Origin: Antedon mediterranea
Taxonomy: Eukaryota; Animalia; Echinodermata
Direction: 5' to 3'
Assembly (NCBI RefSeq): GCF_964355755.1
Contig: NC_092673.1
Location: 23,929,648 to 23,993,647 of the forward strand
Length of the DNA: 64,000 nucleotides
The translations under genes and the position numbers were made by a program. Numbering within the stretch: the first letter of the stretch is position 1; the number at the start of each line of letters is the position of its first letter. The notes beneath the pieces were generated by a model. The model did no database searches and was not told where the DNA came from. It saw only the letters and a program-made list of their open reading frames with translations. Below, piece by piece: positions 2,790 through 34,111 of the stretch.

Positions 2790-4020
2790 AGGAGTTGATA
2801 ATACCAATGGTGACGGAGCTGATAATAACAATATTGAAGAAGATGAAGGTGCTGATAATACCAATGGTGATCTGAGGATGCGATGGTGCTGGTAATACCA
2901 ATGGTGAAGATGACGAAGGTGCTGATGATACTAATGATGAGGCTGGCGAAGGTGCTGATAATACCAATGGTGAAGATGACGAAGGTGCTGATGATACTAA
3001 TGGTGAGGATGGCGATGGTGCTGATAATACCAATGGTGAAGGTGGTGAATGTGCTGATAATACCAATGGTGAAGGTGGTGAAGGTGCTGATAATACCAAT
3101 GGTGAATATGGTGAAGGTGCTGATAATACCAATGGTGAGGATGGCGAAGGTGCTGGTAATACCAATGGTGAAGGTGGTGAAGGTGCTGATAATACCAATG
3201 GTGAAGGTGGTGAAGGTGCTGATAATACCAATGGTGAATATGGTGAAGGTGCTGATAATACCAATGGTGAGGATGGCGAAGGTGCTGGTAATACCAATGG
3301 TGAAGGTGGTGAAGGTGCTGATAATACCAATGGTGAAGGTGGTGAAGGTGCTGATAATACCAATTGTGAGGATGGCGAAGGTGCTGGTAATACCAATGGT
3401 GAAGGTGGTGAAGGTGCTGATAATACCAATGGTGAAGGTGGTGAAGGTGCTGATAATACCAATGGTGAGGATGGCAAAGGTGCTGATAATACCAATGGTG
3501 AGGATGGCAAAGGTGCTGATAATACCAATGGTGAAGATGGCGACGGTGCTGATAATACCAATGGCGAGGATTGTTTGTTTGTTTGTTTTATTAGTTTCTC
3601 CACACATTTTAAAATAAAAGATAAAAATTACAAATTACAAAATAAGATAGACTCATAACTTAAAAAATTACAATAAACATAAAAACATCAAAAATGTGCA
3701 GATGGAGGTCAAAATAAGTTGCGGACAACTTTAAGTCATGACCATCAGTTAAAAAGGGTTTAAAAATAAGGATAACAAAGATGGCGAAGGTGCTGATGAT
3801 ACCAATGGTGAGGCTGACGAAGGTGATGATAATGCCAATGGTGAGGATGGCGAAAATGCTGATAATACCAATGCTGATGATGGTTAAGGTGCTGATGATA
3901 CCAATGGTAAGGATGACGAAAATGCTGATAATACCAATGCTGATGATGGTTAAGGTGCTGATGATAACAATGGTGAAGATGACGAAGGTGCTGGTAATAT
4001 CAGCTGGGAGGATGGCGATA
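2790..4020. repeat. 33-bp GA-rich minisatellite (GGTGCTGATAATACCAATGGTGAAGGTGGTGAA)n, interrupted by a ~210-bp insert
   Basis: 11-aa periodicity in all ORFs at 2774-3617 and 3781-4089; the array pauses at ~3570 and resumes at ~3779. Confidence 0.9.
3571..3779 (-). mobile_element. Truncated retroposon 3' end (LINE-like tail) inserted in the minisatellite
   Basis: Minus strand ends AATAAA(ACAA)n; internal GATGGAGGTCAAAATAAGTTGCGGACAACTTTAAGTCATGACC resembles GATGGAAGTCACAGTAAGTTCACTGAACTTTAAGTCGTGACTCC at ~36460-36505, which also has a microsatellite tail. Confidence 0.55.
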
Positions 4021-4400: not shown

Positions 4401-5475
4401 TTGGATAAATTAGAGAGTACACATAATTAACTAGAAATTAATTCGCCGTCAGTACTCCATGTTTAATCAGAATATTAAATAGTCAAATCGGATGTTTCGT
4501 TTTGTATTTTGAATTATTTAATCTAAAAAAAGGTTACTGTGTCTATGCCATTGTGTTACAGTGATTGTTGGTTATACTCTAAGCCGGAAGAGCATAAAGG
4601 AAAATGAATAAATAAGGTTTTTTTAATCATTGATGGATATAGGTGTGCGTAAAATGGTCAATGAGAGCGTAGGTTAACATTTTTTACTCGGAACCAACCA
4701 GCCAATCAAACAAATTAAAAGAATATTTTTATGTTATTCTCTTTAGTTGAACAAGCTCTTATTTTGTGCTGAAGCCAAAAGCGAGTAAAACCACTAAATG
4801 TCAAAGTAAAAGTCTTAATTATGTGAGAAAAAGGGAGCATTAAAGAAATTGTAACTACATGGAAATTGGCATTTCTATGTAGATCAACGGTTTCAAGATG
4901 TTTTATTCATAACCTCTCGTTATCCGCATCTGTCTTGCGCGCAAACGAATTAGGATTATAACAAATGCTAAATAGGCAATGTTATAGAGTAAACGCTTGT
5001 TTCACCTAATATATCTCATCATTACGTTAATAACGTATTCCCATATATTTATGTCATTATGGTTATAGCACACTTCCGTAACCGCGTGGTTCGGACAACT
5101 GGGGTGTCTTAGAAACTACGTGACGGATTGAAATAATAATTATCATCCATTGTTTTGTTTCTCATGCTATCAAGTTGTTTGAAGTTCATGTCGTTCGTAC
5201 CTATGTGGGATGTGATCGCCGCAGTTTGTAGATAAATAAAGACGCACTTGGATTCTCTAACAAACATGTGCGTACACACCAGGCCTCCCATCGTACCGTT
5301 TTAATAGCGTACACTCATCGTTACGTTATTGATAACGTACACTTTTCGTTACGTTAATTGTTGTCGACGGGTCATTTACTGAACATTCATTTCAAGATAA
5401 TTACACCACAAACAATCTCGTTATGTTATTGCATACGTATATCATCGTTACATTATTGATTACGTGCATTCATCG

Positions 5476-5797
5476 TTACGCAATTGATAACGTACACTCA
5501 TCGCCGCCATAATGTTTGAGAAAGACTGGGAATTCACAACATGTACGTTACGCAAAGAGATATTTCCGGTAAATTAAATGTCGTTTGGGGGCGAATTGCT
5601 AATTATATCAAAAGGTTTTTACATATATTTTTAATTAAAAAGGCTGGTTATGCTATCAGAGGGTGTAACGGATATACTTTAATATTTAATACTTACGTTA
5701 AATAGGTTTTTAATATTTATATATTTTACATTGAGTATTCAAACTGTCTTTATAACATTTTAATTTCCTATGTGACGTCATGACGTGTCTTATAAAT
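5476..5797 (+). promoter_or_regulatory. Proximal promoter of the secreted-protein gene (C/EBP, kB-like, STAT/GAS-like, CRE, TATA)
   Basis: TTACGCAA at 5476-5483 and 5548-5555, GGGAATTCAC 5528-5537, TTCCGGTAA 5564-5572, perfect TGACGTCA 5773-5780 plus adjacent TGACGT, and TATAAAT 5791-5797, about 140 nt upstream of the ATG. Confidence 0.6.
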
Positions 5798-5930
5798 GAT
5801 ACGCACACTTTGATGAGCCAGTATTTTATAGATTCTGGAGTAAGTAGCAGAAATATATTAACTTGTTTTTTGACGTGAGAATCTGCGATTGTCTTCAAAC
5901 AGTACTGTTCGGTGGATAATAATACATGAA

Positions 5931-8900
5931 ATGTTGAAGCGAGAGTTTTTATGCGTAATTGTAATTTTAGGGTTAGCTGCAGTACAGTTGGTTGAAGGAG
6001 TGCCAGCTTTCTACCGGAGAATAATTTCTGGACAGTTTAAGAGAACTCCGGAGGTGCACGATAAATTATTTCATCTGGAAAGAGTACTCAACCAAACAGA
6101 ACTACGACTTAGAGGCTTAGGCTTAACAAAAGTTACTATGGTAAGAAACAATTTAGTTTTCAATGTTATTTTTTTGAATATTTATATTAGAATCTGTTAT
6201 TTATTTATTACAGTTCTCTTCTCTTCTCGCTGATAACAAAACATGTTATGATAGTATAAATGGATATGATATTTACTGCTTGTTTTATATTTACATCCCA
6301 GGATTTCTCCTAGTTTAAGGGTTTTGTTGTTCTGTTGGAAAAAAAAAGTGTTATATCTTAATTATCGTCACAGTGCAATATAACCTGGCATTTAACCTGA
6401 TACTTCTTGATTAAGAAGATTATTAAATTCATATGAGAATTCATAAAAGAAAATGATCCAACTATTAAACTGCCTACTTCTGTACCAATACATACATGTC
6501 GTTATACCTATTTTACAGCATTGCGACCTAACAACCTCCGATAGCATATCAATTATCATATCATCATATCATAAACAAAATGTATTTCCAAAAATGGTGG
6601 CATGTCTCAGAAAGCAATGTGCTGTTGTCAAGGAATAAATAGACAAAGTGAAAAACATTATAAATTATATCAAAATAATTATATCAAAAAAACGCCAAAG
6701 CGGTAAATTTCAATTGCAGTATAAATCATATTACATTTCTATTGATAATGGTAAGTGTGTTAACAAAAACATGACCACTAATTATTATTTTGCAATCTTT
6801 TTTAAACTAGCCGAATGTGTAGGGGAAAACTTACATATTACTTGCTGTATAAGCTAACAGAGAGTATTATTCTTTTTAGCCTCGGGAAACCCAGACAAAA
6901 ATATCAGATCTATTAAATATTGTACCAGAGAAAGATGTCGAGTCGTGGGTAACTGTCCATGAGACCATAGCACAGGTAAAGTATATTATTGCTCGATGAA
7001 TTAATTTACGACTTGATTGCACAATCATACCACTGGTAGTTATGTAAAAAGAAACTTCATCCGAAAAAAAAACACGTTTACGGAGACGTGTTATTCAATT
7101 GTAGAATTCTCTTTTTGCGTGTGGTGCTTTGTCAGCAGTCTATACATTCGTTTAAAAGTGGGAACTTTTTAAAAAGTACAAACAATATAATACTTGGTAA
7201 CATGCTTACAAGTATAATGCATAAAGGTTGGTTTGGAAGATAGCGTCATGTTCATGTATTCTTTTTAAATAAAAATATCAAATGAAAGCACTCAGAAAGT
7301 GAGTGAAGTAGGCCTACTTGGCAAAATATTGCCACAGAGGGCGCATGTTGATATTTCGGCCCATAAGAAAACCAATTTTTCTATTTAAAAAAAAAATGTT
7401 ATTAGACATGTTTTTTAAGTATATACCTATTTACATAGACATATTTGAAATGATAACTTGTAGGCGATATCGTGCAAACAAACAAACAAAGCAAGTAGGC
7501 TACTATGCTTAGCACAATTCTGTTTTGCCAAGTATTAAATAAGTATACCGTATACCAACAGACCATTTCCATTAAATTTTTAAAAAATCGATATATTTTT
7601 GCCCAATTTTTTTTTACAAATCTGTATATTATATTCATTCGTATCATAGAAACATTACGAACGACTTGCTACGTTTAAGCACATTTTGGACAGCTTTAAC
7701 GAGACTACGTCCAACGAAGTCAGTCGAATAGAAGAAGTATTGCATGAAATAAATACGACATACCAGGTAAGTTTAACATATTATTATTAATTCATATTTT
7801 TATCATTACACACCTCAGTGTATCGTTGCCATTTTCACCATTGGTCTTTCCTCGATCAACGTTCTGGTGGTTAAACACATGTTCTCGGATAAAAACTTAA
7901 AACTGGTGGTTGAGTGTACAAATAATGAATCGTGTCCAGTGCAATTTTCAAAAGGTAGTAGGTTCCATCTCATGTCATACCCTGTCGTTGAGGATTGATA
8001 ATTGTTTGGTGGTAGCTTACTACACGAAGGAAGCTTATGGGAGATGAAAGCTCACTGTATTACTGTAAAAATCGCATTATGAAAACTGTTTTGAAAGTTC
8101 AGCTTTTTGTGATAAAAAAGTAAAACACATGACTGTTAGACATATTATAACCAAATTCACCGTCAAAATAATAGCGCGGACTTTTCAAATACCGTAGCCC
8201 ACATATTCAAAACGGAACACACTACAGTGTGTTATAAAATGAAAACAAATAAATGTTCTTATACAAAATCATCATATCATCCGTTACGCTATTCGTCTTG
8301 GGTAGACAAAATATTTAACAATTTTATATTAATGTACTTATATATAAATTATGGTTAATTCTGACGTAGGCAAGCACAATGGAAAAACTTCGGTATAAAT
8401 CTCCGCCTTGGATACCTACCTTATCTATCTTAGATGTACCGAGAAACGTAGATTTGATAACATTAGTTTTCAGTACTACGCTATTGTTCCATATTTCTAT
8501 CTTAGGAAGATATTATAAATGGTTTTATAACAACATTTTTGATTTCATCAGTATATTTTCACTTCAATTTCAATTGTACGCGGGTGGAAGTAATTTCCGG
8601 GTTCACGACAACTTCACACGTTCACCTTGCAACTTCCTGGTTTCAACTAAGTTGGCCGTTCATTTTAGTTTTTTGTCTATTTTCGGATCGGACCGCGAGA
8701 ACCATCGTCTACGCTTCCTAGAGGGGGAGCGAGAGAAGCGAGCTCACCCTCTAGTACCAATAATTACCAATATTACAACTGCTGTTTTCAGCTTAATTAG
8801 TAAATTATTCTTAGCCAATTAGACCTACCCTTTTTTTTTCTAAAAAGACCGTTTATGGTTGTCAAAATAATAATTTGGACATTGAAATATATGTAAAAAT

Positions 8901-9260
8901 GATTCAACTGAATTTATCTTACCTAGTTTGTATTAAAACAAAAGTAACGAACCGTATTTTACGAGACCCCGTCTTAATCTACATGCAATTTTTCCCTTCT
9001 GGTGGGTAAACTCCTTCAATGTTATTTATTACGTAGGCCTATATATTGTTGTTGAAAAAACACCATAACATAATTATGTTCTTTTCATTTTTCAGAATTT
9101 AACTCTTCCGGAAAAAGTTAAATTGAATCTCACAGGATTGAATGAAACCGAGAAGAATCATGCTTTGCATAGCATAATTGGTGATTTTAATGTGTATGTA
9201 CAGTCATTGAGACGTGTGTTATTCAAAGACTTAAACCAAAAGAGGCGTAAATTATCTTAA
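5931..9260 (+). CDS. Uncharacterised secreted 195-aa glycoprotein, candidate long-chain four-helix-bundle (IL-6/IL-11/CNTF-like) cytokine; 4 coding exons
   Basis: Exons 5931-6140, 6880-6975, 7650-7766, 9096-9260 (210+96+117+165 nt), all GT-AG and all phase 0, open through to TAA at 9258-9260. Protein: MLKREFLCVIVILGLAAVQLVEG-VPAFYRRIISGQFKRTPEVHDKLFHLERVLNQTELRLRGLGLTKVTM|PRETQTKISDLLNIVPEKDVESWVTVHETIAQ|KHYERLATFKHILDSFNETTSNEVSRIEEVLHEINTTYQ|NLTLPEKVKLNLTGLNETEKNHALHSIIGDFNVYVQSLRRVLFKDLNQKRRKLS. Signal peptide, 6 N-x-T sequons, no Cys in the mature chain. The gene model is well supported; the cytokine assignment is inference. Confidence 0.8.
7858..8060 (+). mobile_element. Degenerate SINE copy in intron 3 of the secreted-protein gene
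   Basis: GTTCTGGTGGT..TTCTCGGATAA..GTGTACA similarity to the SINE body. Confidence 0.5.
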
Positions 9261-9982
9261 CTATTAATTATTTTCTAAAAAACCGAAAACGTTATTTAAG
9301 GCAAAGCAAATTCGTACTATTTTATCGAGAGAAAAAAAAAAACTAATTTCAAATTATTTGTATTTTATATTTATTATTTGTTCGATAATACATATTTATA
9401 GTAGGCCTAATTAAGTGTTGGTAGTAAAATACAAGACTATATAAAAGTTTATAGGCCTACCACAATTAAAAAAAGACACTCTTTAAGTGTGGTCAAAATT
9501 GTAAGATGTACCTATGTTTATTGTAAACTGGTAAAAATGTCACTCGTTGTATGGAGTGAAACTTTTTTCACTCTATAAAGCGCGTTTACACTCTAATGAA
9601 ATGATGTAAACGGTTATTGTAAACGAGTCATAATTTCACTCGTTGTTTGGAGTGAATATTGCCTGAAACGATGTGAATTTTCACTCTTTTACAGAGAGTA
9701 CAACATATTATTCAAATTCTTTCTATCCGAATAGGCATACCAGTTTAAATTAAACCTTTCCAACAACATTAGTATTAGGGCCAATAACCCAATACTATTG
9801 GGGTATTATTAATGCTGTTGGAAAATGATTTTGCAAAGTATTGTGAAGCAGAACGAGCGCCGTGGAATACGGTAAGCCTTTAAAAAAAGTAGTGCTACAG
9901 TACGACAGACGTTTTCATTTTGATTAAGATAGGAATTTTACTGAATTCCAATGCCTTACAATCGCTAACCGTGTACACGTTA

Positions 9983-10118
9983 AGCTCTGTCTACACTATC
10001 AATCTACATGGCCAGAAAAATGTGATACGCCCATACACGATGATGTCATGTCACTGCCATATTTGGGCACATTACACTTTTTTTTTTGTCAAACTAGTTT
10101 GATAGTGTAGACAGAGCT
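9983..10118. mobile_element. MITE family A (PIF/Harbinger-like)
   Basis: TIR AGCTCTGTCTACACTATCAA...TTGATAGTGTAGACAGAGCT, TTA target duplication. Confidence 0.8.
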
Positions 10119-11289
10119 TTATATGTTTTGTTAATCAACATCGTTAGTGAGTACATCATCATTGACTGGTTTTCCATTTTCATTAAAAACAATTTTTGTT
10201 TTCTTTTCATTTATTAACTTACTAAATTAAATTATAATACTAAAAACAGAATCTGTAGCACCACTTATGGGACGTATCACACTGCTCGTTCTGTTTCACC
10301 ACGTGCTGTCGATAAACAATAAAGCCTGGAACGAGCCTTTAATGTTACACGTTCAATTTCCAAAAGAGAGTATAGTGAAAATCCGTAATGTAGTACTGAT
10401 GGTCCGTCGTGTGCAATATTGGTCAAATAACTACCGTACATTCCGTGCAATTTAATCCATTTAGAAAATCATTTTCCATGCATTATTTTTGCCTGCAATT
10501 GGCCTAACAGGTCCTTTTTATTCTGTATTCACTTTATACCATGGTTATGTTGGTGCAATGATTTATAAAAAAATTATACACTATTTTTCCAATAGTGCCT
10601 TCGAAAGTAACATTGTATTGAAATTGTATACGTAAGTTTTGTGTAGAATTATATATTTTACACTATTTATTCAAAATTACTGAAAACGCTCTAACTACTC
10701 GTGTAAAATGTTCAATCATGTAAAATTAAAGAAAGGGATAGAGCGATAACGTGTGGGTGGTAGGGTGTTTGGGATGCCAATATTTTTTTGTTCTGAAGAA
10801 TATTATGTCAGGATATTATGGCTTTATTTCTATTGTATTTATATCAATTTGCGTTGTGTAGATTTATTGGACAATTTATTTATTTATATTTATAGTAAAA
10901 ACTATATTCTTACTCAGGCAGTATTATATTTTACACTTATCTGAATTAAAAATGCATTCAATTTAATTTACAGTCTGTTTTGTAATTTACTTTGACTTTT
11001 GTTTCGACTTCAAATGACCTGCTGTATTGTTTCTTTGCGAACGCGAATTAAAACATTTAAAATAAACGTACAAAGCATCAAAGAAACACATGTCAGAGAG
11101 TTGAATATTTTTATTGTGGGGGTTGGGTGGTTGTGTGGGGAGGGGGGGGGGGCGGATTGGTGTTTAGAAGAGGGAGTGTGTTTTTGGTGCTATAGTGTTA
11201 AAAAAAGATGACCAACCATAACTCTGTCTGATGTAATCAACTTTCTGAATGGTCTTGATAGTCGGCCTATATTTATCATCACTGCATTA

Positions 11290-17239: not shown

Positions 17240-18245
17240 CACTGATAGCGTTACTGTTTATAACAGCCACTTTAAACGCTACGCTACAACCTTAAAGGCT
17301 ACGCTATCCTGTTCGTAGCATTGTGACAATTTTAAATGCTATACCGCTGATACTGTCAATGTTTGTAGCATTGCGACACCATTTAAATGCTATACTGCTG
17401 ATAGTGTGACTGTTCATAGCATTGTGACACCCTTTAAATGCTATACTGCTGATAGTGTCACTGTTCGTAGCATTGCAAAACCCTATAAATGCTACACCAC
17501 TGATAGTGTTACTGTTTGTAGCATTGAGACACCCTTTAAATGCTATACTGCTGAGTGTCACTGTTCATAGCATTGTGACACCCTTTAAATGCTATACTGC
17601 TGATAGTGTGACTGTTCATAGCATTGCGACACCCTTTAAATGCTATATCGCTGATAGTGTCACTGTTCGTAGCATTGTGACACCACTTAAATGCTACATC
17701 GCTGATAGTGTTGCTGTTCGTAGCATTGTGACACCACTTAAATGCTACATCGCTGATAGTGTCACTGTTTGTAGCATTGAGACACCCTTTAAATGCTATA
17801 CTGCTGAGTGTCACTGTTCATAGCATTGTGACACCCTTTAAATGCTATACTGCTGATAGTATGACTGTTCAACAGCATTGTGACACCCTTTAAATGCTAT
17901 ATCGCTGATAGTGTCACTGTTCGTAGCATTGTGACACCACTTAAATGCTACATCGCTGATAGTGTTGCTGTTTGTAGCATTGCGACACCCTTTAAATGCT
18001 ATACCGCTGATAGTGTCACTGTTCATAGCATTGTGACACCACCATTTAAATGCTATAACACTGATAGTGTCACTTTTCAATAGCATTGCGACACCCTTTA
18101 AATGCTATAACGCTGATAGTGTCACTGTTCATAGCATTGTGACACCTTTTAAATGCTATACTGCTGATAGTGTTAATATTTGTAGCATTTTGACAAAATT
18201 TAAATGCTATACCGCTAATAGTGTGTCACTGTTTATAACATCGTG
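17240..18245. repeat. 51-bp minisatellite, about 19 copies, just downstream of KLHL20
   Basis: Unit TAGCATTGTGACACCCTTTAAATGCTATACTGCTGATAGTGTCACTGTTCA; 17-aa periodicity in spurious ORFs. Confidence 0.9.
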
Positions 18246-18555
18246 ACCTCAACTAAAATTCTACGCTTCCACTGATAGGGGCACCATTTATTGCATTGTG
18301 ACCTAAAATAAAAATCTGCAGCACCTCTAAGGCTTGGTGAAAATCACCAAGGATGGAGTGCCTATAGATAATACAGTACACACAAAACAGTTTCAACACA
18401 AAAAGGGTTATGTTATCAAACAGACTGCAGCACAACCAATCCAAAATAGCTGTTGCACAATTAATACGTCGCGCCACCAACAATGAGAGCCTAAGGCACC
18501 AAAAAGCACTAACCATGCATGCGAACACCAGAGTAGCACTGTGACACTATAAACA

Positions 18556-21500
18556 TCAGGTCCAGAGGTGAGTATCTGATTGCGGAAGTTTCACGACTCC
18601 AACTCCGCCCCCTAATCGCCTGAAGTTCATACTGCCACACATCTGCCACGACTTGCTGTCGGGGTCATACACCTCAACCGTTTTCAAGTAAGTTGTTCCG
18701 TCAAAACCGCCGACGGCCATTAGTTGCCCGTTGACCACAGCCAATCCAACCTAAAAGAAGTCAAGATAAATTAATCAATTTTAAATAATTTACCAGGAAA
18801 AAAATAAAATCAACTTGCAGACATCAAGTAGGTAAAACAATTTATTCATTAGAATTTTCAAAATAAATTTAACAATTCATATTTTACAGAAATGCTACTG
18901 AATACTTCTGGCTGGCCAATAATATCTAAAAATGAAGGTTTTGCATATTGGTAGTAAACATCTGGAACATTACAATAACATATGGTTCTTCGGGTTCAGA
19001 ACATATTTTAAAAAGTAGGGGGAAAAAAGGTTTTTTATGCTCAAAAATACTGTACTACACAAAGATTTGGTTTGACCTACGACCTACGTACGTTGTTGGA
19101 CGTCACCTAGATCTAGAATCTGCCAAAAGAATCGAGTGGGAAAGCACATCCCAATGTCTCTGATTGCGCACAGCTAGTTGTTAAGTCGTAGGTCATCACA
19201 AATAAAATAATTATTTCCTACCCCACTACGTCTAGAATTCATAGCTACAATGGGTTTCCAGGTATTAGAAGCTGATTCATATCGTTCAGCACTACTCAAT
19301 TCTGTCTGGTCATCTCGTCCTCCTACAGCATACAGCATGTCGTTGAATACTGAGCACCCCAGATGTTTTCTCCGCGTTCCCATTGGTGCCACTGGTGTCC
19401 ACTTGTTCATGCGAGGGTCATATCTTTCCACTGAAAATGGGAGGAAATATAGTGATACCTTTTATATCTCAAAATTGACACCAAGAAAGTTGGATGGAGG
19501 TTTTGTTCATGAATAGCTTAAAGATATATTGTCCCCCTAAACAAATTTTTTTGTTGAATATGTCTTTTTAATGTCACATAATAGTTATTCACTTTGACCA
19601 AAAGCTGGAAAAAAAAATGATTAAATGAAAAAATGTAATTCAAAGCAAAAAATACTTTTAAGTTTTAAAATTGTCTGTCAGACAATGGTTTTTGGTTAAA
19701 ATTAACCGTTTCGTATGTCTTTTTAAAAATGAAATCTTATTTTTTTTGTTTTTTTTACAGAAGTGAATAACTTTATTAAAACTGCAAAATGGACTATTTA
19801 AAGTTAGATTTTATTAATCTTCATTTTTCATATTCATTTTTGGGGGACAATACATCTTTAAAAAACAAGTTTGTTTCCAACTTACAATTTAAGGCTCATA
19901 TGCAAAATATCAGAAAGTGAATATATAGAACCCAGTACGTATCATTATAATGGTGTTATACGATTTTAACTTTTCTAATCAATGCTTTGTGCAGCTTCCT
20001 GAATGAGTTAATGTGAATGTTCATATTCTTTAACCGCAGTGTGAACACATAGTTAAACTTTTTGCTGAAACTGAACATACATGTAATTAGAGGGTGATTG
20101 ATTAAAAAAAGGGTGAAGGTTAAAAGAGCAAAAAAATTACATTCCTGTTTAAAACTATTTTTACATCCAGAATCAGTCTCAGTGTAAATGTAGCTTTAAG
20201 TGATACATCATATTGATGGTAACAACATCATAATATCGACATAATCAATTAAATTAATATGGATACAGAAATTAGTACAACTCAATTATTCATTCTATTC
20301 ATTAATATAATCCAGACATAACGATCAAGTTATTACAACGCTGATTCACACTTTAATTATTTCTGCAAACTTAAATTATTTTGCTCATTTACATAAAATT
20401 TAATTGAAAGAGCTCAATATGATTGCACTTGAATGGATATTATTTAATTATAATTGTTTTAGGGTTCTAAAATACCGAAAAAAACACATTACTATTGGAT
20501 GGTATCTTTAAACCAGAAGCAAATTTTTAATAAAATGTCAACATTATAATTTATATGCATTTTCTACATTTCGGGCAATTGAGGAAGAGACGGGAGGAGA
20601 TGGTAGAGTGGACACTATTAGAGCCTGTTACTGCTGACAAGGAAAAAATGTCTTAAAACTAATATTTGTTTCCTCTGTCACTAGAAATGGTTTTAAATAA
20701 AAAAAAAATTCCAATTGTTTCTGATCTCGAAAAAAAAAAATTGTTAGCTGTAACACAATCATGGTCTCAATTTGACCTCAATTCAGAAAGTCACACTGAC
20801 TGGAGCAAACATTTGACTACTCTCTGTAGATAATTATATTGAATGTCATTAACATGAACGATCTTATTTCATCTTTGTTATACTAAACTACTAACGGTTT
20901 CTTAAAAATACATCAGAAACAGACTATCATTCAGTCATGGTACCAAACCAAACTGTAAATGCCAAGGGTATATTTTAATATACTGTATAACACACCTGAT
21001 TGTATGGAATTTAATTGATCAATTACGCATCACATGTTATTTGGATAATAAACGGCTCTAATGCACGTTCAACTTTCTGTAAACATTTTGAGAATTGTTG
21101 CTACGCAGCATTATTGACTGATCGCAATCGGAAATCAATTTGTTGTGCGCGCCGTCTATAACTATTCTTACTCCACGCCCAAAGTCAGAGCACTGCTTTT
21201 TTTAAGGCCTAGCATTCATCAATGATTTAGGATGGATAAATTGAATAAAGGCAGGTGTGTTATTAAACAAATAATGAATGTTTTGTATTCATTGAATGGA
21301 AAGAATGTCATAGTATTTTTAACGAGGCGCAATACAGCAGCCAATGAAATATTCTCACCATCCAACTCATAAACATTCATTATTTGTATAATATAACACG
21401 CCAAGTGTGTTAAAGATTCGCTATCCAATCAATTTGAACTAAAACATGAAAGCCCCAAGTTCCGAGTTCAAATCTTGGTTGGGCTGTATTTGGACTGTAT

Positions 21501-24500
21501 TTGTGATAACTAGGTTTTTTTTGGCAGGGGGTTGCTATGAGGTGGGGGAGTGGGGATTTTTCAGAAGTACTGCTAATATTTGCTTGGATTACTCATGTCT
21601 CAAAACATAAAATAGTTCAAAGAGCTTGTTTGTTTGATGGGCAGCAGTGCTTTAGCATAGGCTAGCATGTTGGATAATCGTTTGTTTGATTTCATCAACG
21701 ATGCATGTCCTTCTGCTATTTTATCCCTGGTCTACAGTACTATATTCCCTGTGTTAATGGTGTATGGCTAATTTCAATACTATAGAACTTATTATAGAGT
21801 TGTGGGCTATGGTTTAACAATTGAAAGCATTCTTTTGTCATTTTAATTTTACTTCATGATAGCAACGAATGTCTAACAAAGCTGCATAGTAATATTCATC
21901 CAAGTTGCTGGCTAAGAATTCATTCTAATTTAATCATCATTTAAAAATTCAATTAATTCAGGACAATGATCCTTAATAAACCTGTTGAATAATTAATTAC
22001 CAACAAAACAGTTTAATGATGATTATATTTTTAGAATTTAAAAAACAAATTTATAAATTTCTATTTAATCAAGAACATTGAAATAAATATGTAAATAAAA
22101 ACGTCAGGACATGATTTTTACATACCGGTAGTTATATTTATCAGAAATATGTAACAAAAAATGAGTTTATTACCATTTACCGGAAACGATAAATATTGGA
22201 CACACCTACATTATTAGGGAATGCTTTCTCATGAAATAAACGAGGGGAATATGCTCAAACACTACGGTCAATCCGTAATAAGTGGACACTTTGTTGGGTC
22301 TTAAAGTGTTTCTTAGAGGTTCTGTCTGTACTACAAATTGGTCAGATAATATTCCCTACTCTGGCAAAATATAACAGACTATTAACTTGGCCCCGACGCA
22401 AGTTGGTGGTCTAGTTATGAACGGCAGGCTAGTGATCGCGAGGTCGTGGGTTGGAGCGAACTGTTTCCTTGGCCTCGACGCAAGTTGGTGGTCTAGTTAT
22501 GAACGTCAGGCTAGTGATTGGGAGGTTGTGGGTTGGAGCGGACTGTTTCCTTGGCCTCGACGCAAGTTGGTGGTCTAGTTATGAACGTCAGGCTAGTGAT
22601 TGGGAGGTTGTGGGTTGGAGCGGACTGTTTCCTTGGCCTCGACGCAAGTTGGTGGTCTAGTTATGAACGTCAGGCTAGCGATTGGGAGGTTGTGGGTTGG
22701 AGCGGACTGTTTCCTTGGCCTCGATGCAAGTTGGTGGTCTAGTTATGAACACCAGGCTAGTGATTGGGAGGTTGTGGGTTGGAGCGGACTGTTTCCTTGG
22801 CCTCGACGCAAGTTGGTGGTCTAGTTATGAACGGCAAGCTAGTGATCGGGAGGTTGTGGGTTGGAGTGGACTGTTTCCTTGGCCTCGACGCAAGTTGGTG
22901 GTCTAGTTATGAACACCAGGCTAGTGATTGGGAGGTTGTGGGTTGGAGCGGACTGTTTCCTTGGCCTCGACGCAAGTTGGTGGTCTAGTTATGAACACCA
23001 GGCTAGTGATTGGGAGGTTGTGGGTTGGAGCGGACTGTTTCCTTGGCCTCGATGCAAGTTGGTGGTCTAGTTATGAACACCAGGTTAGTGATTGGGAGGT
23101 TGTGGGTTAGAGCGGACTGTTTCCTTGGCGTCGACGCAAGTTGGTGGTCTAGTTATGAACACCAGGCTAGTGATTGGGAGGTTGTGGGTTGGAGCGGACT
23201 GTTTCCTTGGCCTCGACGCAAGTTGGTGGTCTAGTTATGAACACCAGGCTAGTGATTGGGAGGTTGTGGGTTGGAGCGGACTGTTTCCTTGGCCTCGATG
23301 CAAGTTGGTGGTCTAGTTATGAACACCAGGCTAGTGATTGGGAGGTTGTGGGTTGGAGCGGACTGTTTCCTTGGCCTCGACGCAAGTTGGTGGTCTAGTT
23401 ATGAACACCAGGCTAGTGATTGGGAGGTTGTGGGTTGGAGCGGACTGTTTCCTTGGCCTCGATGCAAGTTGGTGGTCTAGTTATGAACACCAGGCTGGTG
23501 ATTGGGAGGTTGTGGGTTGAAGCGGACTGTTTCCTTGGCCTCGACGCAAGTTGGTGGTCTAGTTATGAACACCAGGCTAGTGATTGGGAGGTTGTGGGTT
23601 GGAGCGGACGGTTTCCTTGGCCTCGACGCAAGTTGGTGGTCTAGTTATGAACACCAGGCTAGTGATTGGGAGGTTGTGGGTTGGAGCGGACGGTTTCCTT
23701 GGCCTCAACGCAAGTTGGTGGTCTAGTTTTGAACACCAGGCTAGTGATTGGGAGGTTGTGGGTTGGAGCGGACTGTTTCCTTGGCCTCGACGCAAGTTGG
23801 TGGTCTAGTTATGAACACCAGGCTAGTGATTGGGAGGTTGTGGGTTGGAGCGGACTGTTTCCTTGGCCTCGAAGCAAGTTGGTGGTCTAGTTATGAACAC
23901 CAGGCTAGTGATTGGGAGGTTGTGGGTTGGAGCGGACTGTTTCCTTGGCCTCGACGCAAGTTGGTGGTACCAGGCTAGTGATTGGGAGGTTGTGGGTTGA
24001 AGCGGACTGTTTCCTTGGCCTCGACGCAAGTTGGTAGTCTAGTTATGAACACCAGGCTAGTGATTGGGAGGTTGTGGGTTGGAGCGGACTGTTTCCTTGG
24101 CCTCGACGCAAGTTGGTGGTCTAGTTATGAACGGCAGGCTAGTGATTGGGAGGTTGTGGGTTGGAGCGGACTGTTTCCTTGACCTCGACGCAAGTTGGTG
24201 GTCTAGTTATTTATAAACGCCAGGCTAGTGATTGGGAGGTTGTGGGTTGGAGCGGACGGTTTCCTTGGCCTCGACGCAAGTTGGTGGTCTAGTTATGAAC
24301 ACCAGGCTAGTGATTGGGAGGTTGTGGGTTGGAGCGGACTGTTTCCTTGGCCTCGACGCAAGTTGGTGGTCTAGTTATGAACACCAGGCTAGTGATTGGG
24401 AGGTTGTGGGTTGGAGCGGACTGTTTTCTTGGCCTCGACGCAAGTTGGTTGTCTAGTTATGAACACCAGGCTAGTGATTGGGAGGTTGTGGGTTGGAGCG

Positions 24501-27500
24501 GACTGTTTCCTTGGCCTCGACGCAAGTTGGTGGTCTAGTTATGAACACCAGGCTAGTGATTGGGAGGTTGTGGGTTGGAGCGGACTGTTTCCTTGGCCTC
24601 GACGCAAGTTGGTGGTCTAGTTATGAACACCAGGCTAGTGATTGGGAGGTTGTGGGTTGGAGCGGACTGTTTCCTTGGCCTCGACGCAAGTTGGTGGTCT
24701 AGTTATGAACGGCAGGCTAGTGATTGGGAGGTTGTGGGTTGGAGCGGACTGTTTCCTTGGCCTCGACGCAAGTTGGTGGTCTAGTTATGAACGCCAGGCT
24801 AGTGATTGGGAGGTTGTGGGTTGGAGCGGACTGTTTCCTTGGCCTCGATGCAAGTTGGTGGTCTAGTTATGAACACCAGGCTAGTGATTGGGAGGTTGTG
24901 GGTTGGAGCGGACTGTTTCCTTGGCCTCGATGCAAGTTGGTGGTCTAATTATGAATGCCAGGCTAGTGATCGCGAGGTTTTGGATTGGAGCGGACGGTTT
25001 CCTTGGCTTTGGCGCAAGTTGGTGGTCTAGTTATGAACGCCAGGTTTTTAATTAATAATTATGGTAAAAATATTTGTTCCCGTTCGATGACATAATTTAA
25101 ATTTCATAATTATAATGTTTATACGTCAGTATGAAAACCCCTACACTTTCATACTCTTTAATTAATACCAATACTACTAGTTTATTAATATTATTAAGTT
25201 TTATTCATTATATGAACATCTATTATGTATTCTTCTTTTTTCTTTTGTTATATGATTTTGTCATTTATTGCCAGATCCATCAATCTACATCAAATTTGTA
25301 CAGTATATTAATAAGCTTTTTATGGTACGCAATTAGTAAGTAAGCAAATCATGCATCATGCTTTTTTTTATTACCTTCATAGCTTGAATTTTTGTGTGCA
25401 GGTGCTTGGCTACCACTCTAAGGGTCCTTGCTTCAAGTCCTGCAACATGTCAGGACTTTTTTCTAAGGACAAAATTACAACCATTCTACTGGGCAGGCAG
25501 TGGTTAGTAAAATTCAAAAAAAATTGTTTATATATAAAACTCTTATAAAATTGGGATTTCAGATCCAGTGAGATTGAGGCTTTAAACAACTCTTTATTGC
25601 AATTCAACTTCCGGTAGAATAATATGGTAAAATTATTTGTCCTTTGATCGCGTAAGAGAGGAAATTAAAATTTCATAGCTTATAATTAATTATATTATAG
25701 TGGTAGAAGACGGTCAAATTATTTATTCATCGATCACGTAATCGGAAGCGCTTAAAATTTAATTATTGTTTATTTATGTCTGTTCACGTCAAAACATTAT
25801 GAAAAATTTCCATTATATACTTTTTGCTACATAAATTAATTGTGTTATCACCCACTGGTTTATTAATAATAATATATATCCGGTAGAAGATGGCAAAGTG
25901 ATTGTGGCATAATTTATTTGATAACTTAATTGGAATATCTTATAGCATTGTTTATATTTTTATAATAATATTGTTTGATTGTTTCCGGTAAGCCATCAAT
26001 AGATTATGGTAAACTAATTTCCTTCTATTCTATGCCCTTAATAATAGTGTTTATTTATAAATTCAGGTACCACTTTGATACTGGTTTATTTAATATTAAT
26101 AGTGTCTTGTGCTGCATTTATTACAGAGAGTGCAATTTATTCATACTGTAAACCAGGGCAAAACGACCTACAGTAGCATGAAACCTAGATCTACCAGACC
26201 TAGCATGTAAAATAAAAAGCACTTTAACTTGAAATTAATAAGCAAAACATGGAGTTAAAATTTGTATGAAGAAACATGTGGCTATAAATGTGTGGTACCT
26301 CACGTATGTAATTTTGAAAAGAACTACAATAGTTTAATCAGTCATTAAAGTAAACTCAACCATCTTTCCAAAACAGAATAAACTTAACAGTTCTTTTCAG
26401 AACTACATAATGTACATGGTGCTCAAGTACGTATTTATGAAATACAGAATAAATGAATGGATATCATATGTTAGTGTTCCCCAATAAAAAAAAAAGTTTA
26501 AAAAATTTGACCCGCTCCTAAAGAGATATAATTTGTTTTGTGTTGTTCAGCTAACACACATCTTGTAAATTGAGTAAAGCTCTGTCTACACTATCAAACT
26601 AGTTTGACAAAAAAAGTGTGATATGTGCCCAAATACGGTAGTGATAATGATATGCCCAAATATGTTAGTGATAATATGACATCATCATCCCCATATATGG
26701 GCACATCACATTTTTTTGTTTCATAAAGTTATTTTCATTTCTGTGTCTTATATTATATGTTTTGTTTGCTTTTAAATATTTTGTTTTGACGTTTGCTTTA
26801 TTGGCGACACCACCATTTTGGAAATAAATGTTAATTTTGAATTGAATTTTGAATAGTGTAGACCAAAGATCGTATAGCGCCACGTAGTGGCGCAAGATAT
26901 GGAACTGACGCTCGAAAAATGATAATTGCATTGGCAGCCATTCCGGCAAGCGGATTACCCAGTAGGCAATGCGGCACGCCACCTAAATCAATGTAAACAA
27001 ATAGGATTTACATCTACGCGATAAACAGTACGACTTTATTTTATCTTTTGTGTCAAAATGAAAGAACATCTATTATAACATTCGATTATATAAATTTACT
27101 CCATTTGATATTACACTTACATATGCGTATATCACTGTCCAACCTCAAACGGCTACAGAATAAACACTGACTGTATGGAGGACGAATTTTGTAGGCAGTC
27201 AGTTGAGGCATAGTTATAAATAGTAATAGGACTAGTGAGTATTCAAAAATGTTTACATTAATTAACTAAATATTTTTCAAATAAAGATGAAGAACAAAAT
27301 AAATATGAGGATCAAATTTATAATTTAAATTTATTAAATAAAAAAAAACAATAACATCATGATCAGGTTTAGTAGACCTACCTACCCTGTGATTTTATTG
27401 TTTTATAACGATTTTTTATTTCATTACATTTAATTATTTCTGTTAATGTTATTATTAATAAAACGCCATTTTGTCTTCGTACATTTTTAATAAAAACTCT

Positions 27501-30500
27501 TAATTCCCGAACAGCTTCAGCTTTTTTCTTAATCTTCCATCCATCCAAGTCATCATAGTCAGCCGCCAATATCATTCATCCTCTCCTCCCAGACTTTTTT
27601 TAATAATACTAACTAGTAGTTAGTAGTATTGGGCATTAAATATGCCTAGGCCTACTACTGTACTATCTAGGCCCTAGATCGGATTGCGAAGAAATGCCTG
27701 CCTGAACTAAATTTATACAACAATTTAATAATTTTGTTAATGTTTACTAGCAAAAAAATATATATTCTAAAAACTTACCCTTACAATTTACCCGATACAA
27801 CACGAGAAAACCTCCCGAACAAACACTCAACACGTCACACGTGGATGTGGTTCAATGGTTTATTATACACTTCCGGGGTATGTGATCGCGTAACTTGCTT
27901 GCCGGAATGGCTGCCCATGGAATTTCACTCATGCGCAGTGTATAAGAGATAGGACTTCCCTATCTTGCGCCACTTCGTGGCGCTATAGTATCTTTGGTGT
28001 AGACAGAGCATAATACTGTACTAATCTTAATTATTTGCATTGATTAAAGTTGAAGTACCTGTATTTAAAGGTGAAGTGCCATCTGAGCCACCAACTGCAT
28101 AAAGGTAAGAACCAAGTACAGCTACAGCGACTCCCAAACGTCTAGTACTCATTGATGCTACTCGTGTCCACCTATTTGCATGTGGTTCATATCTAATAAA
28201 ATAATAATTTAATTACCACCATTAAAAACATACAATGAAATTACCTGTTCTATTGCACATTCATTATTTGTTTTATAACACACTTGGTCAAAGCCTAAAT
28301 TTGTAAATATACATTGCGCAAAGAATGTATACATATGAAGAGTTTACCATTCTGATATAATATACAGTACAAAATTATTTGTTCCATTGCACATTCATTA
28401 TTTGTTTTATAACACACCTACAGTAGCCAAAGCCTAAATTTGTAAATTGCATAAGAATCTTCCATAAATATACAGTGCACAAAGAATGTATACATATGAA
28501 GAATGTACCTTTCTACAATGTTTAAACATGAGACTCCATCCTGGCCCCCTACTGCGTATAGATAACCATCGAGTACAGCGACCCCTACACTGGTCCGACA
28601 CGTACTTGTCGGGGCAACATCACTGCTCCATTGATTTGTTTGTGGATCGTACCTAAAATTAGAGTAAATAACACATTATATAAACAAATTATCATCCAAT
28701 TTTCTTCCAATATAAAATTGGACAAACATTAATTTGCAATGTAAACAATAAATTGACATGACCTGATTGTTTGTCACAAATTAAAACTCCTTAATTTCAA
28801 GAACAATGAATCATAGTAAAATCATACAATTCCTACCTTTCTATGCTATTTAAATATGAAGAACCATCGTGTCCTCCAACGGCATATAATAAATCATCGA
28901 GAACAGCAACCCCAACGCCGCATCGTCTCTTACTCATTGCTGCGACCATTCTCCATTCACCTGCCTGCGGATCATATCTTTCAACACTAGCTATGGCATC
29001 GCCACTACACCAACCACCAACTATGAATGAAAAAATGGTTTGATTTTATATATTAATCAAAAAAGATATTTTGCAACTAAGTGGTATTTATTGAGAGAAC
29101 ACTTATGAACAGTAATGTAGTACTTTTTTCCAGAAGAAGCGGTCCTTCTTATGGTGTATTGGGTATTTTGCTAACAACAGTGGAAGGGCTATCAGTGCCC
29201 ACTGGCTAGATCTAGGGCCCCAGAGCATAAGCAGTCCAAACACAACTACCCAGCATTGGAGGGCCATTAGAAGTGCTAAACCAGGGGCCTTTCCCTTGCG
29301 TTATGACGGTTGTCACATAATGCTTTGTAATTGTATTTCTTTGTAAATTTTTTGTTTCATATGGACAGTTTGTCTGAAATAAAGTTGAATTGAACTGATT
29401 TGAATAAACAGATACATTATGTGTTGAAATAAAACATTACCAGCAAAAAGGACTTCTCCACATCTAATAGGTTTTCTAGGTCTTGTTCTTGGACCTTGCA
29501 TGAGAGGGCGCTCTTGTGGTAAAAGTAAATAGTTTTTTGCTTCATCAACTAAATCTCGACAGGCTTCATCACTACGAATCAAAATATCTGAACTAACAGT
29601 TCCAACTAGAAACTTAGGTGTTAACAACGGTAAACGAACATGTTGAATAACCTATAAAAACAACAAAGTATAGAAAAAATTTAATTTAATGTGGTGGTTA
29701 CTAATACAAGTTCAATCTGCGGTAGGTGGAGGGTACTGTATGTTAGTGAATTGATCAAAACGATTCTAAACTACTTGAAGAGAGGAGGTTGGAGCTTTGC
29801 GAAGCCGGCGTTGTGTGTTGGGAGTGTGGGATATTAACATAATTGTAATTTGTACTGGGAAGGTTTTAAACTACTGGAGTGGCGTAGATTGGGAGAGAAG
29901 TACCGCTCTGGGGTGGGTATTTCATCTAGTTATTTATAACTGTTACACTCTCTGACATGGACGTCAACGAGAGGGAAGTAATACGCAGAATTGAAGCCTT
30001 TGAGATAAGGTGCTAGAGAAAAATGTTAAAAATTAAACACAGAGGGAATGAGGACATATTGATTGAGAAAATGAATATGAAAAGGATAGCGGAGCAGCAA
30101 AAACAATGGCTTGGACAAGCTTTACTGTACACACACTCTGAGTTGGGCAAAACATCTTCCTTCCTAATGCAAAATAAACAAGGGATTATCAATAAACAAG
30201 GGATTATCAATAAACAAGGGATTATCAATAACCATGATTTTTATACAGTAGTAACTGTATAAAACTCTACACTATCAAACTAGGTTGACAAAAAAGTGCC
30301 TAAATATAGTAGTGATGTACCCAAATATGGTTGTAATGTAATATGACATCATCATCACATTTTTTGTCACAAAAAGTTTGATAGTGTAGTCAGAGCTTTA
30401 AATGAAACATACCTGTGAAATAAGATGCCTTCTTTCTCCTAAATTGTATTTTACCCATGCAAGGCAAGCGGCAAATACTTGCTCCTCTGTCCGAACGTTC

Positions 30501-32796
30501 AATTCTTCACTTCCAATGATGTCTATTAACTGGCCTACAGGTAACAACAGAAACTCCTCACTTTCCATTACCTAGATAAAAAATGAATGTAATTTAACCA
30601 AATAACACAAAAGAACATGATTCAATCAACAACCAACCTACTGTACTTCGAATAAATGATAATTGAAAAATGTCAATGAAAAATTAAGAAGAAAGCATTA
30701 GAGTAATCCTTTCGTCCTTTAATGTGCAATACCACTCGATGTAGGAAATCATTTGTCCACAACTCTATTCATGTTTCCAACACAACATTCCAAAGATAGT
30801 TTGTTTACTTGTTTACTACTGACTGTATATAGTTTTAATGTATTGTATTGATATTTTTAATGTTGTATGTGTTTTTAAGCATCAAGGAAAACCAATTTCA
30901 TGTTCGCCTTGTTGTGTTCATGACAATAAAGATTATCTTATCTTGAAAGTTTAAGAATAGAAGACACACATTTTAAACTAGAAAGAACGGCACTCCGAGA
31001 GTTCATATCTCCGCCTAAAGTATAATTTCCCTAAACAATTATGATTTTCCCCAATTTTTTTTTTTTTTTTAAATGTTTGTGTCTTTAGTGCAAAGTGTGA
31101 TTAGGCTAATTTCACTACAACCTTTATGAATGTTAGTTTTGGTAATGGTTATGTATCCAGCCTTACACAGTTGAGGTCCCCAGTTCAATCCTATTATTTT
31201 TTTATTATTAATATTATTTTATATTATTTATATTATTATAATACAGTATATTTTAATTTCATTGACTATGACTACGTTAAGACTGCTCCATACTAGATTG
31301 CAGGCTTTGAAAATTGTCTCCTATCTTTTAACACTAGCAGGTCTGAAAATAATAGTAAGTGATCCAGAATTGGGATCCTGGTCTGGATTGCTTCCAAAAG
31401 GTTCTTATGATGAATGATATAACCTGTGAATGAATTTACATGAGTGATCAATACTCATACAGTAGTCAATACTTGACACACTGTTTAAAATAAAAAATAC
31501 ACCATTTTAAAGCTACACATACACCGGATTTTACCATGGTACAGTACCATTCAAAAAGAAAAAAAAACCATTTATATTGTATTATTTTATATTACTCAAT
31601 TACTGTACTGTAAAGAATGTGGACATGGCACCCATTCTAGACTTTAACAAAATCTCTTATCTACGTTGCATCTTAAAATGTTATTGTTTAGAAGGAAATT
31701 ATATGATTGCAAGAGTATGGAGTAAAATAATGAGATTGGTTCAACAGGAAGTGGCTTAACAAGCTGAATTTGTTCAGGATGGGTCTGAATGGTAGGTTAC
31801 AAATCTGATTAGACTGTTTAAAACTTCATTGTAAGACCATAACAACTGTAGTGTCATGGTTATGTATAATTTTTAGCACTAAAATAAGTCAAAACTTTGT
31901 TCATTATCTCCTCCAATACTTGTGTTTTTTAGCTTCTTGGTCACTTTTTTTGGTAAACTTCGTAACTCTCTGCAATTCTCTCTATGTCACATAAAGGTCA
32001 TCGCAATCGGTGACAGCATATAAACAACAATAACAAAATGGTGACCTGTCTATTGGATGGGTTTACCGTATTTATTAATATTCAAACAATATCATGGGAA
32101 GTACTGTAAATAAATTGATATACATACAGTAGAATCCCTCCCTCAGGACCTCCATATACAGTAGGACAGTTTGAGGTGTGATATGTGGCCAACCCCTTTT
32201 TATTTTTGTTTGGTTCTGAAAATATCATCTTACTATAGGTTATTCTAAAACAGATTAAAAATAGACTATACAAATACCTGTTGAAAATTCAATTGTGTAA
32301 ACTTATCAGCAACCCTTAAAAGTTCTTTACAGGAATGAGTATCTGCAAATGCCCTAATTCCAAGACAGTTTGATGGGTCTAGCTGCCGTTTCAAAAACTC
32401 GCAGCATGCCTCCTGAATTTCTCCTAACTGTAATAAGCAGGCAGCTGGTAACAGAGTCTGAACGTTACTCTCTTCCACCGTAACGACCGATGTGTACGCA
32501 AAATCAATCAACTGTTCCATAGCACGTTCATCTATGTCTCTAATCGTTACCTCTGTTTGTCTGCTCTCTGCAAGTTCGCCTGTGAACATTGCACGGAAAT
32601 AAGGACTACAGGCGGATAAAACAATTCGGTGGGCAAATATTTTTGTATCGGCAACAACAATGACGACGTCGCAAAGTTCCCTGTGTTTGCGTAACACGCT
32701 TATCATCTCCATGGTCTCTCGAGGGTGCTTTTCAGAATTGTAAACATATCGAGCCGGTTGCGGAGGTGTGTCAAAAACTTGGTGAACTCCTGCCAT
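18556..32796 (-). CDS. KLHL20: Kelch-like protein 20 / diablo (BTB-BACK-6xKelch Cul3 adaptor), 584 aa, 8 coding exons
   Basis: Exons 32796-32278, 30571-30413, 29651-29441, 29020-28837, 28652-28509, 28192-28059, 19430-19222, 18750-18556 (1755 nt, phases consistent). Motifs [93 protein letters not shown] match KLHL20. Probable non-coding first exon with its donor at 33711-33712. Confidence 0.96.
19522..19857. mobile_element. Non-autonomous TIR element with TTAA TSD (Kolobok-like)
   Basis: TTAA|AGATATATTGTCCCCC ... GGGGGACAATACATCT|TTAA. Confidence 0.65.
22387..25045. repeat. 82-bp tandem satellite, about 32 copies, in a KLHL20 intron
   Basis: Unit TTGGCCTCGACGCAAGTTGGTGGTCTAGTTATGAACACCAGGCTAGTGATTGGGAGGTTGTGGGTTGGAGCGGACTGTTTCC; ORF calls recur every 82 nt. 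Confidence 0.95.
26578..28009. mobile_element. MITE family A copy split by a nested element
   Basis: Left TIR at 26578; right TIR interrupted at ATAGTGTAG|...|GTAGACAGAGC. Confidence 0.7.
26862..27998. mobile_element. 1.14-kb non-autonomous TIR DNA transposon nested in the MITE A terminus
   Basis: About 40-bp TIRs ACCAAAGATCGTATAGCGCCACGTAGTGGCGCAAGATA / TATCTTGCGCCACTTCGTGGCGCTATAGTATCTTTGGT; subterminal inverted GGCAGCCATTCCGGCAAGC; TSD GTAG (or TGTAGA). Confidence 0.8.
29930..30125 (+). mobile_element. RTE-clade LINE reverse transcriptase C-terminal fragment (degenerate)
   Basis: Translation [34 protein letters not shown] matches the RTE motif ETWT...RRIEAFEMWCYRRMLKI..NEEVL..WLGH. Confidence 0.65.
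30262..30397. mobile_element. MITE family A
   Basis: Degenerate TIRs, same core. Confidence 0.7.
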
Positions 32797-33199
32797 TTTT
32801 ACTATAAAATAAAAATATTGGAATTTAACGTAAAAGGTCTTATATTATGCTGAATCAGTATGGTACTAGAGTAGGTCTGTTTAAAACAAAAATACAGTCA
32901 TTGCATTGCCACTTTTAAAACAGGAAATTTTGATGCTCAATTAACAAATTAAAGCAAGTCATGCTGTTTTGATAATTTGAAAAATGACTGTACATATCAT
33001 ATGCTATACAGTACTGTATCAAAAAGTAATTGTAAAAAAAGGAAATTTTGGCATATATTTGTTTGGTGTGATTTAAAAAATAGTTAATTACTATTAGTAT
33101 TAATATACTAGGCTAAAGTAGTATCAATCAAATCAGCAAGTAGGTATAGCCTACAGTATTTATTATTGATTATAGAAAAATTGATGTAAAGTTTTATTT

Positions 33200-33712: not shown

Positions 33713-34111
33713 GGTTTAATAGTCGAAATATATCTTCTAACCTGTTGTTTTAGCTCGGTTATTTAAGGAAGTTTGTTTACATTTTTCTTCGAGCAAAAGA
33801 TGGCTGCCTAAAATTGTACATGAAGACTATTTTTAAACCAATTTGTTCTAATTTAAATTATAAATAAAAATTCGTTTTCATATTAGGATTAAAAAACTAA
33901 AATAATTATTAAGTATTTAAAAAGACATATGAGATTTTTTATTAAAAATAATTTTTTTTGTTCATGTTATGTAACAATACATAGGCCTAGGGTCAAATTT
34001 GAAAAGGTCAATTTTCATGGAAACCACTGTAATCAAAACAACTTTTACATTTCTGTCAATTTTTCAACGTTATATACCTGTTTTAAATCGTATACATTCG
34101 ATAAGTTAACT
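33713..34111. promoter_or_regulatory. Bidirectional promoter region KLHL20 / ANKRD45
   Basis: Only about 400 bp separate the KLHL20 first-exon donor (33711-33712, minus) from the ANKRD45 ATG (34112). YY1-like AAGATGGCTGC 33797-33807, forkhead-like TGTTTAC 33774-33780, X-box-like TTTCATGGAAAC ~34013-34024. Confidence 0.55.

Follow-up and report, generated by a model that had tools for sequence, protein, structure and literature searches.

In published work, IL-6 has been detected in vertebrates only and the invertebrate ligands named are insect Unpaired (Upd) and a shrimp lectin (PMC13203501), no member of the IL-6 superfamily was found in invertebrates (PMC8226699), and a sea-star IL-6-like molecule (Beck and Habicht 1996) is cited by two of the sources (PMC8226699, PMC9465101). 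Structure-guided searches have recently found IL-6 as far back as lampreys (PMC13081863), IL-1 among invertebrates (PMC13736523), and interferon in amphioxus, and an IL6R/gp130-like receptor has been reported in a sea urchin (PMC13203501). The present study examined a 64,000-nucleotide stretch of the feather star Antedon mediterranea (assembly GCF_964355755.1, contig NC_092673.1, positions 23,929,648 to 23,993,647 of the forward strand; hereafter the window, in whose numbering all coordinates are given), in which a preliminary description had noted, at 5931..9260, a hidden four-exon gene for a probable gp130-family cytokine and had remarked that, the insect Unpaired family apart, ligands of this sort are hardly recognised among invertebrates, as the first two sources likewise report. 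An echinoderm gene of this kind was not found in the literature searched, in which the coverage of subscription journals was poor. The gene likely encodes a long-chain class I four-helix cytokine whose subfamily is unassignable, a reading that is supported by the feature search and structural model of the ESM Atlas, the layout of the gene, and the features of its promoter and 3' untranslated region (UTR).

Among the best 10 of 30 matches to the Atlas features of residues 24-195, nine carry the IL6, GCSF, IL12, LIF_OSM, IL11, IL23, IL31 or CNTF families and the tenth is an arthropod cluster with no name; the top feature score was 0.91, with 196 of 256 features in common, and the family names in such clusters often cover a minority of members (IL6 18% in the first row). 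The Atlas model (predicted TM-score, pTM, 0.70; predicted local distance difference test, pLDDT, 0.71) had as its best structural match an IL-12-alpha cluster (IL12 59%, IL6 19%, GCSF 12%) with a TM-score of 0.64 over 138 residues, spanning 37-189, and the other nine of the best 10 structural rows reached at most 0.46. A run with the full-length protein gave 0.57 for the best structural row versus at most 0.44 for the others, and its closest unnamed clusters were from arthropods (0.88, 0.82). As an observation in its own right, unnamed arthropod clusters of 191, 296 and 379 amino acids (aa), with 53-93 members, resemble the feather-star protein at 0.82-0.88 and may contain further unrecognised invertebrate helical cytokines.

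Two AlphaFold2 models built from the single sequence were of low confidence (pLDDT 57.9 and 60.3; pTM 0.52 and 0.53) and agree in placing helices at residues 40-62, 87-116, 123-141 and 158 to about 190, together with a short helix at 72-82. The four predicted helices are 19-37 residues long, with long A-B and C-D linkers and a 6-residue B-C loop, and a long, short, long succession of loops has been described as the pattern of an up-up-down-down bundle (PMC7378365). The helices A, C and D of the preliminary description coincide with those of the models, as does its succession of loops, and helix B begins about 10 residues earlier than it had proposed; the models thus give the helix pattern twice, at a confidence that leaves the tertiary fold unconfirmed.

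The four-exon gene is real and spliced, and its parts are as follows.

5835..5930, forward strand: 5' UTR, minimum extent, from the start of the spliced contig of run X1 (contigs cannot reveal the true start)
5931..6140, forward strand: coding exon 1 (210 nt, residues 1-70), with the predicted signal peptide, an N-terminal segment ending in KR (37-38) and predicted helix A (40-62)
5931-5999, forward strand: predicted signal peptide, about residues 1-23, within exon 1
6141..6879, forward strand: intron 1, phase 0, GT-AG, 739 nt, absent from the X1 contig
6880..6975, forward strand: coding exon 2 (96 nt, residues 71-102), with the A-B linker, the short predicted helix 72-82, the sole Trp (W93) and the start of helix B
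6976..7649, forward strand: intron 2, phase 0, GT-AG, 674 nt, absent from the X1 contig
7650..7766, forward strand: coding exon 3 (117 nt, residues 103-141), with the remainder of predicted helix B, the short B-C loop and helix C (123-141)
7767..9095, forward strand: intron 3, phase 0, GT-AG, 1329 nt, containing dispersed repeats, absent from the X1 contig
9096..9260, forward strand: coding exon 4 (165 nt, residues 142-195 and stop), with a C-D loop that bears three sequons (142, 152, 157), then helix D as predicted (158 to about 190) and the basic KRRK tail
9261..10966, forward strand: 3' UTR, covered by the spliced contig to 10068 and by a second, unbridged X1 contig at 10099-10966, the joining of the two being presumptive

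The exon boundaries were mapped by script. Each coding exon has a length divisible by 3, the introns begin with GTAAGA, GTAAAG and GTAAGT, respectively, and their terminal AG is preceded by pyrimidine-rich tracts. The translations of the exons are identical to residues 1-70, 71-102, 103-141 and 142-195 of a 195-aa database entry (P0001), which is carried as "uncharacterized protein [Antedon mediterranea]" in NCBI and UniRef and was the sole match among 75 candidates when exon 1 was the query; the 195-aa reading frame in four phase-0 exons was thus correctly described, but the gene is not hidden: its protein is already in both databases and lacks only a name. All three junctions, whose presence in transcript data was to be checked, occur in one 1460-nt contig of run X1 (5835-10068, depth 93.6), which lacks precisely the 739, 674 and 1329 nt of the introns, each bounded by GT..AG. 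The type of this run is a guess ("RNA?"), and the support for splicing comes from one run of one study; the comparison covered two (X1 and X2) of the five public runs that contain the stretch, and X2 showed none of the three joints, its contigs being colinear across the introns. Contig depth was very high at 8340-8840, inside intron 3. Compared with the window, the X1 contig also shows a silent change at the third position of codon 172 (9188), a substitution in the 3' UTR at 9504, and a 32-nt gap at 9852-9883 that lacks GT-AG ends, differences that are likely allelic.

The predicted product is likely secreted and likely glycosylated. Its sole hydrophobic stretch lies at residues 6-21, after a basic start (Kyte-Doolittle 13-mer 3.19, versus at most 1.01 beyond residue 30), and it was from hydropathy that the signal peptide was assigned, in agreement with the earlier proposal. 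A residue scan likewise recovered the six N-glycosylation sequons that had been counted before (residues 54, 119, 137, 142, 152 and 157) and a mature chain free of Cys, the only Cys being residue 8. Dibasic pairs are found at 29, 37, 180 and 190-193. The KR pair (37-38; 6039-6044, forward strand) stands immediately N-terminal to predicted helix A and the KRRK tail occupies residues 190-193 (9240-9251, forward strand); these residues may serve for the removal of a short propeptide by a convertase or, at the tail, for the binding of heparan.

The introns of vertebrate long-chain cytokine genes are typically phase 0, and those of the feather-star gene, which fall after residues 70, 102 and 141, are all phase 0 as well. 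Lamprey IL-6.2 and skate IL-6 have the same four-exon layout with three introns within the helical domain (PMC13081863), a likeness that was drawn from the layout and not from aligned intron positions. The same study recognised IL-6 by a length of 150-280 aa, a signal peptide, a prediction of four helices, and a structural match; the feather-star protein, at 195 aa and with a signal peptide by hydropathy, has the length and N-terminus of a long-chain class I cytokine.

The promoter of IL-6 contains a cAMP response element (CRE), and the flanks of the feather-star gene hold the following putative control elements.

5476..5796, forward strand: proximal promoter, of predicted function, holding the motif classes below
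5476 and 5548: C/EBP-like sites, two of the six in the window
5528: kB-like site with one mismatch
5564: STAT-like site of the gamma-activated-site (GAS) type, one of four strict GAS-like sites in the window
5773: perfect CRE palindrome, the only one in the window
5790: TATA-like box, with the other promoter motifs upstream of it
10862..10892, forward strand: AU-rich-element (ARE)-like cluster of five ATTTA, 53 nt upstream of an ATTAAA at 10945

When the 64 kb were read in 1272 overlapping 400-nt windows, the kB, C/EBP, STAT-like and CRE motifs coincided in 3, whose starts lie at 5401-5501. The two strands of the 64 kb carry 308 and 281 ATTTA, and nowhere else do five of them fall within 30 nt as they do in the ARE-like cluster, which lies in the putative 3' UTR near the end of the second X1 contig. 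IL-6 is controlled by NF-kB, C/EBP-beta and AREs in its mRNA, and OSM by STAT5 (PMC7201933); the features at both ends of the feather-star gene are hints that would fit an inducible cytokine. Degenerate 28-bp tandem repeats at 5289-5356 and 5418-5503 supply bZIP-type cores (TTACGT, TTACGC) to the promoter, and the observed/expected ratio of CpG is 1.74 in 5231-5930 versus 0.66 across the window.

Several points weigh against the cytokine reading. There is no sequence relative: the protein found only itself among 1,835,955,588 representatives, so that conservation cannot be gauged, and word searches (75, 110 and 7 candidates) returned the protein alone. The fold has a single source of support, both Atlas searches being reckoned together. 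Shuffled proteins reach Atlas scores of at least 0.9 in 4-10 of 100 cases and one third of them obtain ten matches of the same clan, rates that were measured on whole proteins and not on parts such as residues 24-195; the structural row, moreover, lies "under the bar" for the naming of a family, and the low-confidence AlphaFold models gave no second support for an up-up-down-down topology. In a hydrophobic-moment test with 2000 shuffles, segment C was equalled by 1.1% of them, and A, B and D by 21%, 25% and 13%, respectively; of the four segments earlier called amphipathic, only C exceeded its shuffles, so that the description has weak support. The motif counts overstate significance because the promoter and ARE motifs were picked after the sequence had been seen. 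TOMM7 is not among the neighbours in the window (5.9 kb upstream covered), the genes downstream being KLHL20-like and ankyrin genes. Three phase-0 introns are expected by chance about once in 10 under an assumed prior and are worth little alone; they also mark short-chain cytokine genes and IFN-gamma, whose introns are likewise all phase 0 and whose product also has a mature chain without Cys and a basic tail at its C-terminus.

Sequence searches of Pfam and the PDB gave weak, unrelated rows only (best Pfam E value 0.031, under its cut-off), and PF00489, PF07400, PF01110 and PF01291 had no match at E values up to 10, with the whole protein and with the four exons separately; the resemblances to IL-11, IL-6 and CNTF that had been proposed earlier found no match in these searches. 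Lamprey IL-6 likewise escaped BLAST (PMC13081863).

That the protein is a true gp130-family cytokine of the IL-6/IL-11/CNTF type, binding an alpha receptor and gp130 in a three-site complex, appears unlikely. IL-11 is also free of Cys, IL6, IL11, CNTF and LIF_OSM clusters are among the Atlas look-alikes, and the three-intron layout is that of lamprey IL-6.2 (PMC13081863). CNTF, CLCF1 and IL-27p28 share a conserved site-1 Trp (PMC10022904), and the sole Trp of the feather-star protein, W93, stands immediately ahead of helix B or at its beginning, in a site-1-like place by positional likeness and not by alignment. Site III, in contrast, is marked by a Trp, or the Phe of FxxK, at the N-terminus of helix D (PMC10022904, PMC7378365), an aromatic that is conserved at the helix D start in IL-6, IL-11, IL-27p28, CNTF, CLCF1, LIF and OSM (PMC10022904), but no Phe, Trp or Tyr occurs in residues 141-171 here. 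The two to four cysteines expected in the mature chain of IL-6 (PMC13081863) are also absent, as all four are, the linkage to TOMM7, which together with the human 7p block marks an IL-6 orthologue, is not seen in the window, and the best structural row is named for IL-12p35. Because the site-III test failed, the IL-6 cysteines are missing and TOMM7 is not seen in the window, we place the protein in the long-chain class I helical cytokines and not in the strict gp130 family, which keeps the broader half of the original assignment through the Atlas evidence; it may function like a gp130-family member. On this placement it is a member of the superfamily and not the orthologue of any single vertebrate interleukin.

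The members of that superfamily resemble the feather-star protein in different respects. F172 and R181-V182 have what we take to be the spacing of helix D in IL-12p35, IL-6 and G-CSF. IL-12p35, IL-23p19 and IL-27p28 (PF03039, PF16649) provide the best structural row (TM-score 0.64), and they too are secreted and similar in size to the predicted four-helix bundle; unlike them, the feather-star protein has no sequence match, no Cys for a p40-type disulfide, no site-III Trp, and no known soluble partner chain. With IL-6, IL-11, G-CSF and the IL-6 of lamprey and hagfish (PMC13081863) it shares a length within 150-280 aa, a signal-peptide-like N-terminus, four predicted helices, three domain introns, promoter sites of the NF-kB and C/EBP type and an ARE-bearing 3' end, whereas it lacks the IL-6 cysteines, the site-III Trp, an intron in the signal peptide, and TOMM7 as a neighbour in the window, and carries six sequons. 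The clusters of CNTF, CLCF1, cardiotrophin, LIF and OSM are look-alikes in the Atlas at 0.88-0.90 and the single Trp before helix B recalls CNTF and CLCF1 by position; unlike the feather-star protein, these cytokines have the FxxK site-3 motif, and their genes have two to three coding exons, fewer than the four found here. Drosophila Unpaired 1-3, the ligands of Domeless, are secreted invertebrate JAK/STAT ligands that are likewise invisible to BLAST from vertebrate cytokines, and the unnamed arthropod clusters at 0.87-0.88 look alike, though they are not shown to be Unpaired; the feather-star protein is far shorter than the Unpaired proteins (about 400 aa), comes from a deuterostome, and has no sequence similarity to them. 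The IL-6-like activity of Asterias forbesi (Beck and Habicht 1996) comes from the same phylum and is IL-6-like by name.

Rather improbable is a secreted helical protein other than a cytokine, such as a glycoprotein of the matrix, of reproduction or of defence, or a prohormone cleaved at its KR/RR pairs, whose Atlas likeness is a chance match to generic bundles. The missing sequence relatives, the low confidence of the AlphaFold models, the Atlas false-positive rate of 4-10% at a score of 0.9, the dibasic pairs, and the potential for heavy glycosylation would all suit such a protein. The TM-score of 0.64, however, extends across almost the whole mature chain and is far above the unrelated rows, no non-cytokine family matches in Pfam, and the intron positions, promoter cluster and ARE cluster concur on a cytokine; the chain is not a multi-peptide precursor, given that residues 39 to 179 hold no dibasic sites. 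A class II helical cytokine of the interferon/IL-10 type, with a class II receptor as its partner, is very improbable: IFN-gamma genes likewise consist of four exons with three introns (PMC3271213), in addition to the traits listed above, and interferon-like ligands were found by structure in amphioxus (bioRxiv 10.64898/2026.08.17.745176), but no interferon or IL-10 family is among the best 10 feature rows or the best 10 structure rows, and the low-confidence models have a single short helix besides the four long ones, in place of the five or six of class II.

For the long-chain class I cytokine, a mechanism can be outlined. As a whole, the outline is likely: a secreted cytokine of the IL-6/IL-12p35/G-CSF/LIF superfamily that signals via a gp130/Domeless-type receptor and JAK/STAT. 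Infection or injury would induce the gene through the NF-kB, C/EBP and CREB sites, the STAT-like promoter site would give feedback on the gene itself, and the AU-rich cluster at the 3' end would give the mRNA a short life. The cytokine would then cluster a gp130/Domeless-like receptor and switch on JAK/STAT, with W93 before helix B and R181 near the end of helix D as a candidate site I and helices A and C as a candidate site II; the vertebrate site-III contact is likely missing, since helix D begins without an aromatic residue and three sequons stand in the C-D loop. More tentatively, and at somewhat less than an even chance, the gene would specify a two-site, Cys-free, inducible echinoderm ligand of gp130/Domeless-JAK/STAT that has retained the exon layout of vertebrate IL-6 together with its NF-kB/C-EBP/CRE/ARE control.

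The remainder of the window contains a multi-exon BTB-BACK-Kelch gene at 18559-32844 (reverse strand), convergent with the cytokine gene, whose best natural PDB match is KLHL20 and which is a useful synteny anchor for finding orthologues. An ankyrin-repeat gene at 33893-36246 (forward strand) lies head-to-head with it; KLHL20 and ANKRD45 presumably adjoin in human, in which case the pair would be old microsynteny. A 33-bp tandem array at 2807-3571 and 3780-4018 has open frames on both strands, one of them an acidic Gly/Asp/Glu/Asn repeat of 260 aa. Adjacent frames of 317 and 201 aa at 45917-47476 (reverse strand), separated by a stop, have a Cys-rich end and no Pfam match and look like a decayed DNA-transposon gene. 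Minisatellites lie at 17309-18247 (51 bp, 18 copies), 22386-25044 (82 bp, 32 copies) and 58683-59433 (87 bp, 9 copies).

The surprise of the finding is limited since the fold class is well known and the structure-led discovery of such cytokines is now expected. The gene nonetheless provides a crinoid candidate in a phylum where the JAK/STAT ligand is reported missing, and makes the question of the missing ligand testable with one recombinant protein. If the reading is true, the IL-6/IL-12 superfamily and its inflammatory wiring would have been present in the last common deuterostome ancestor, before site III and the alpha receptors, and, in an animal that regenerates strongly, the protein would be a candidate for the signal behind inflammation and the regrowth of arms.
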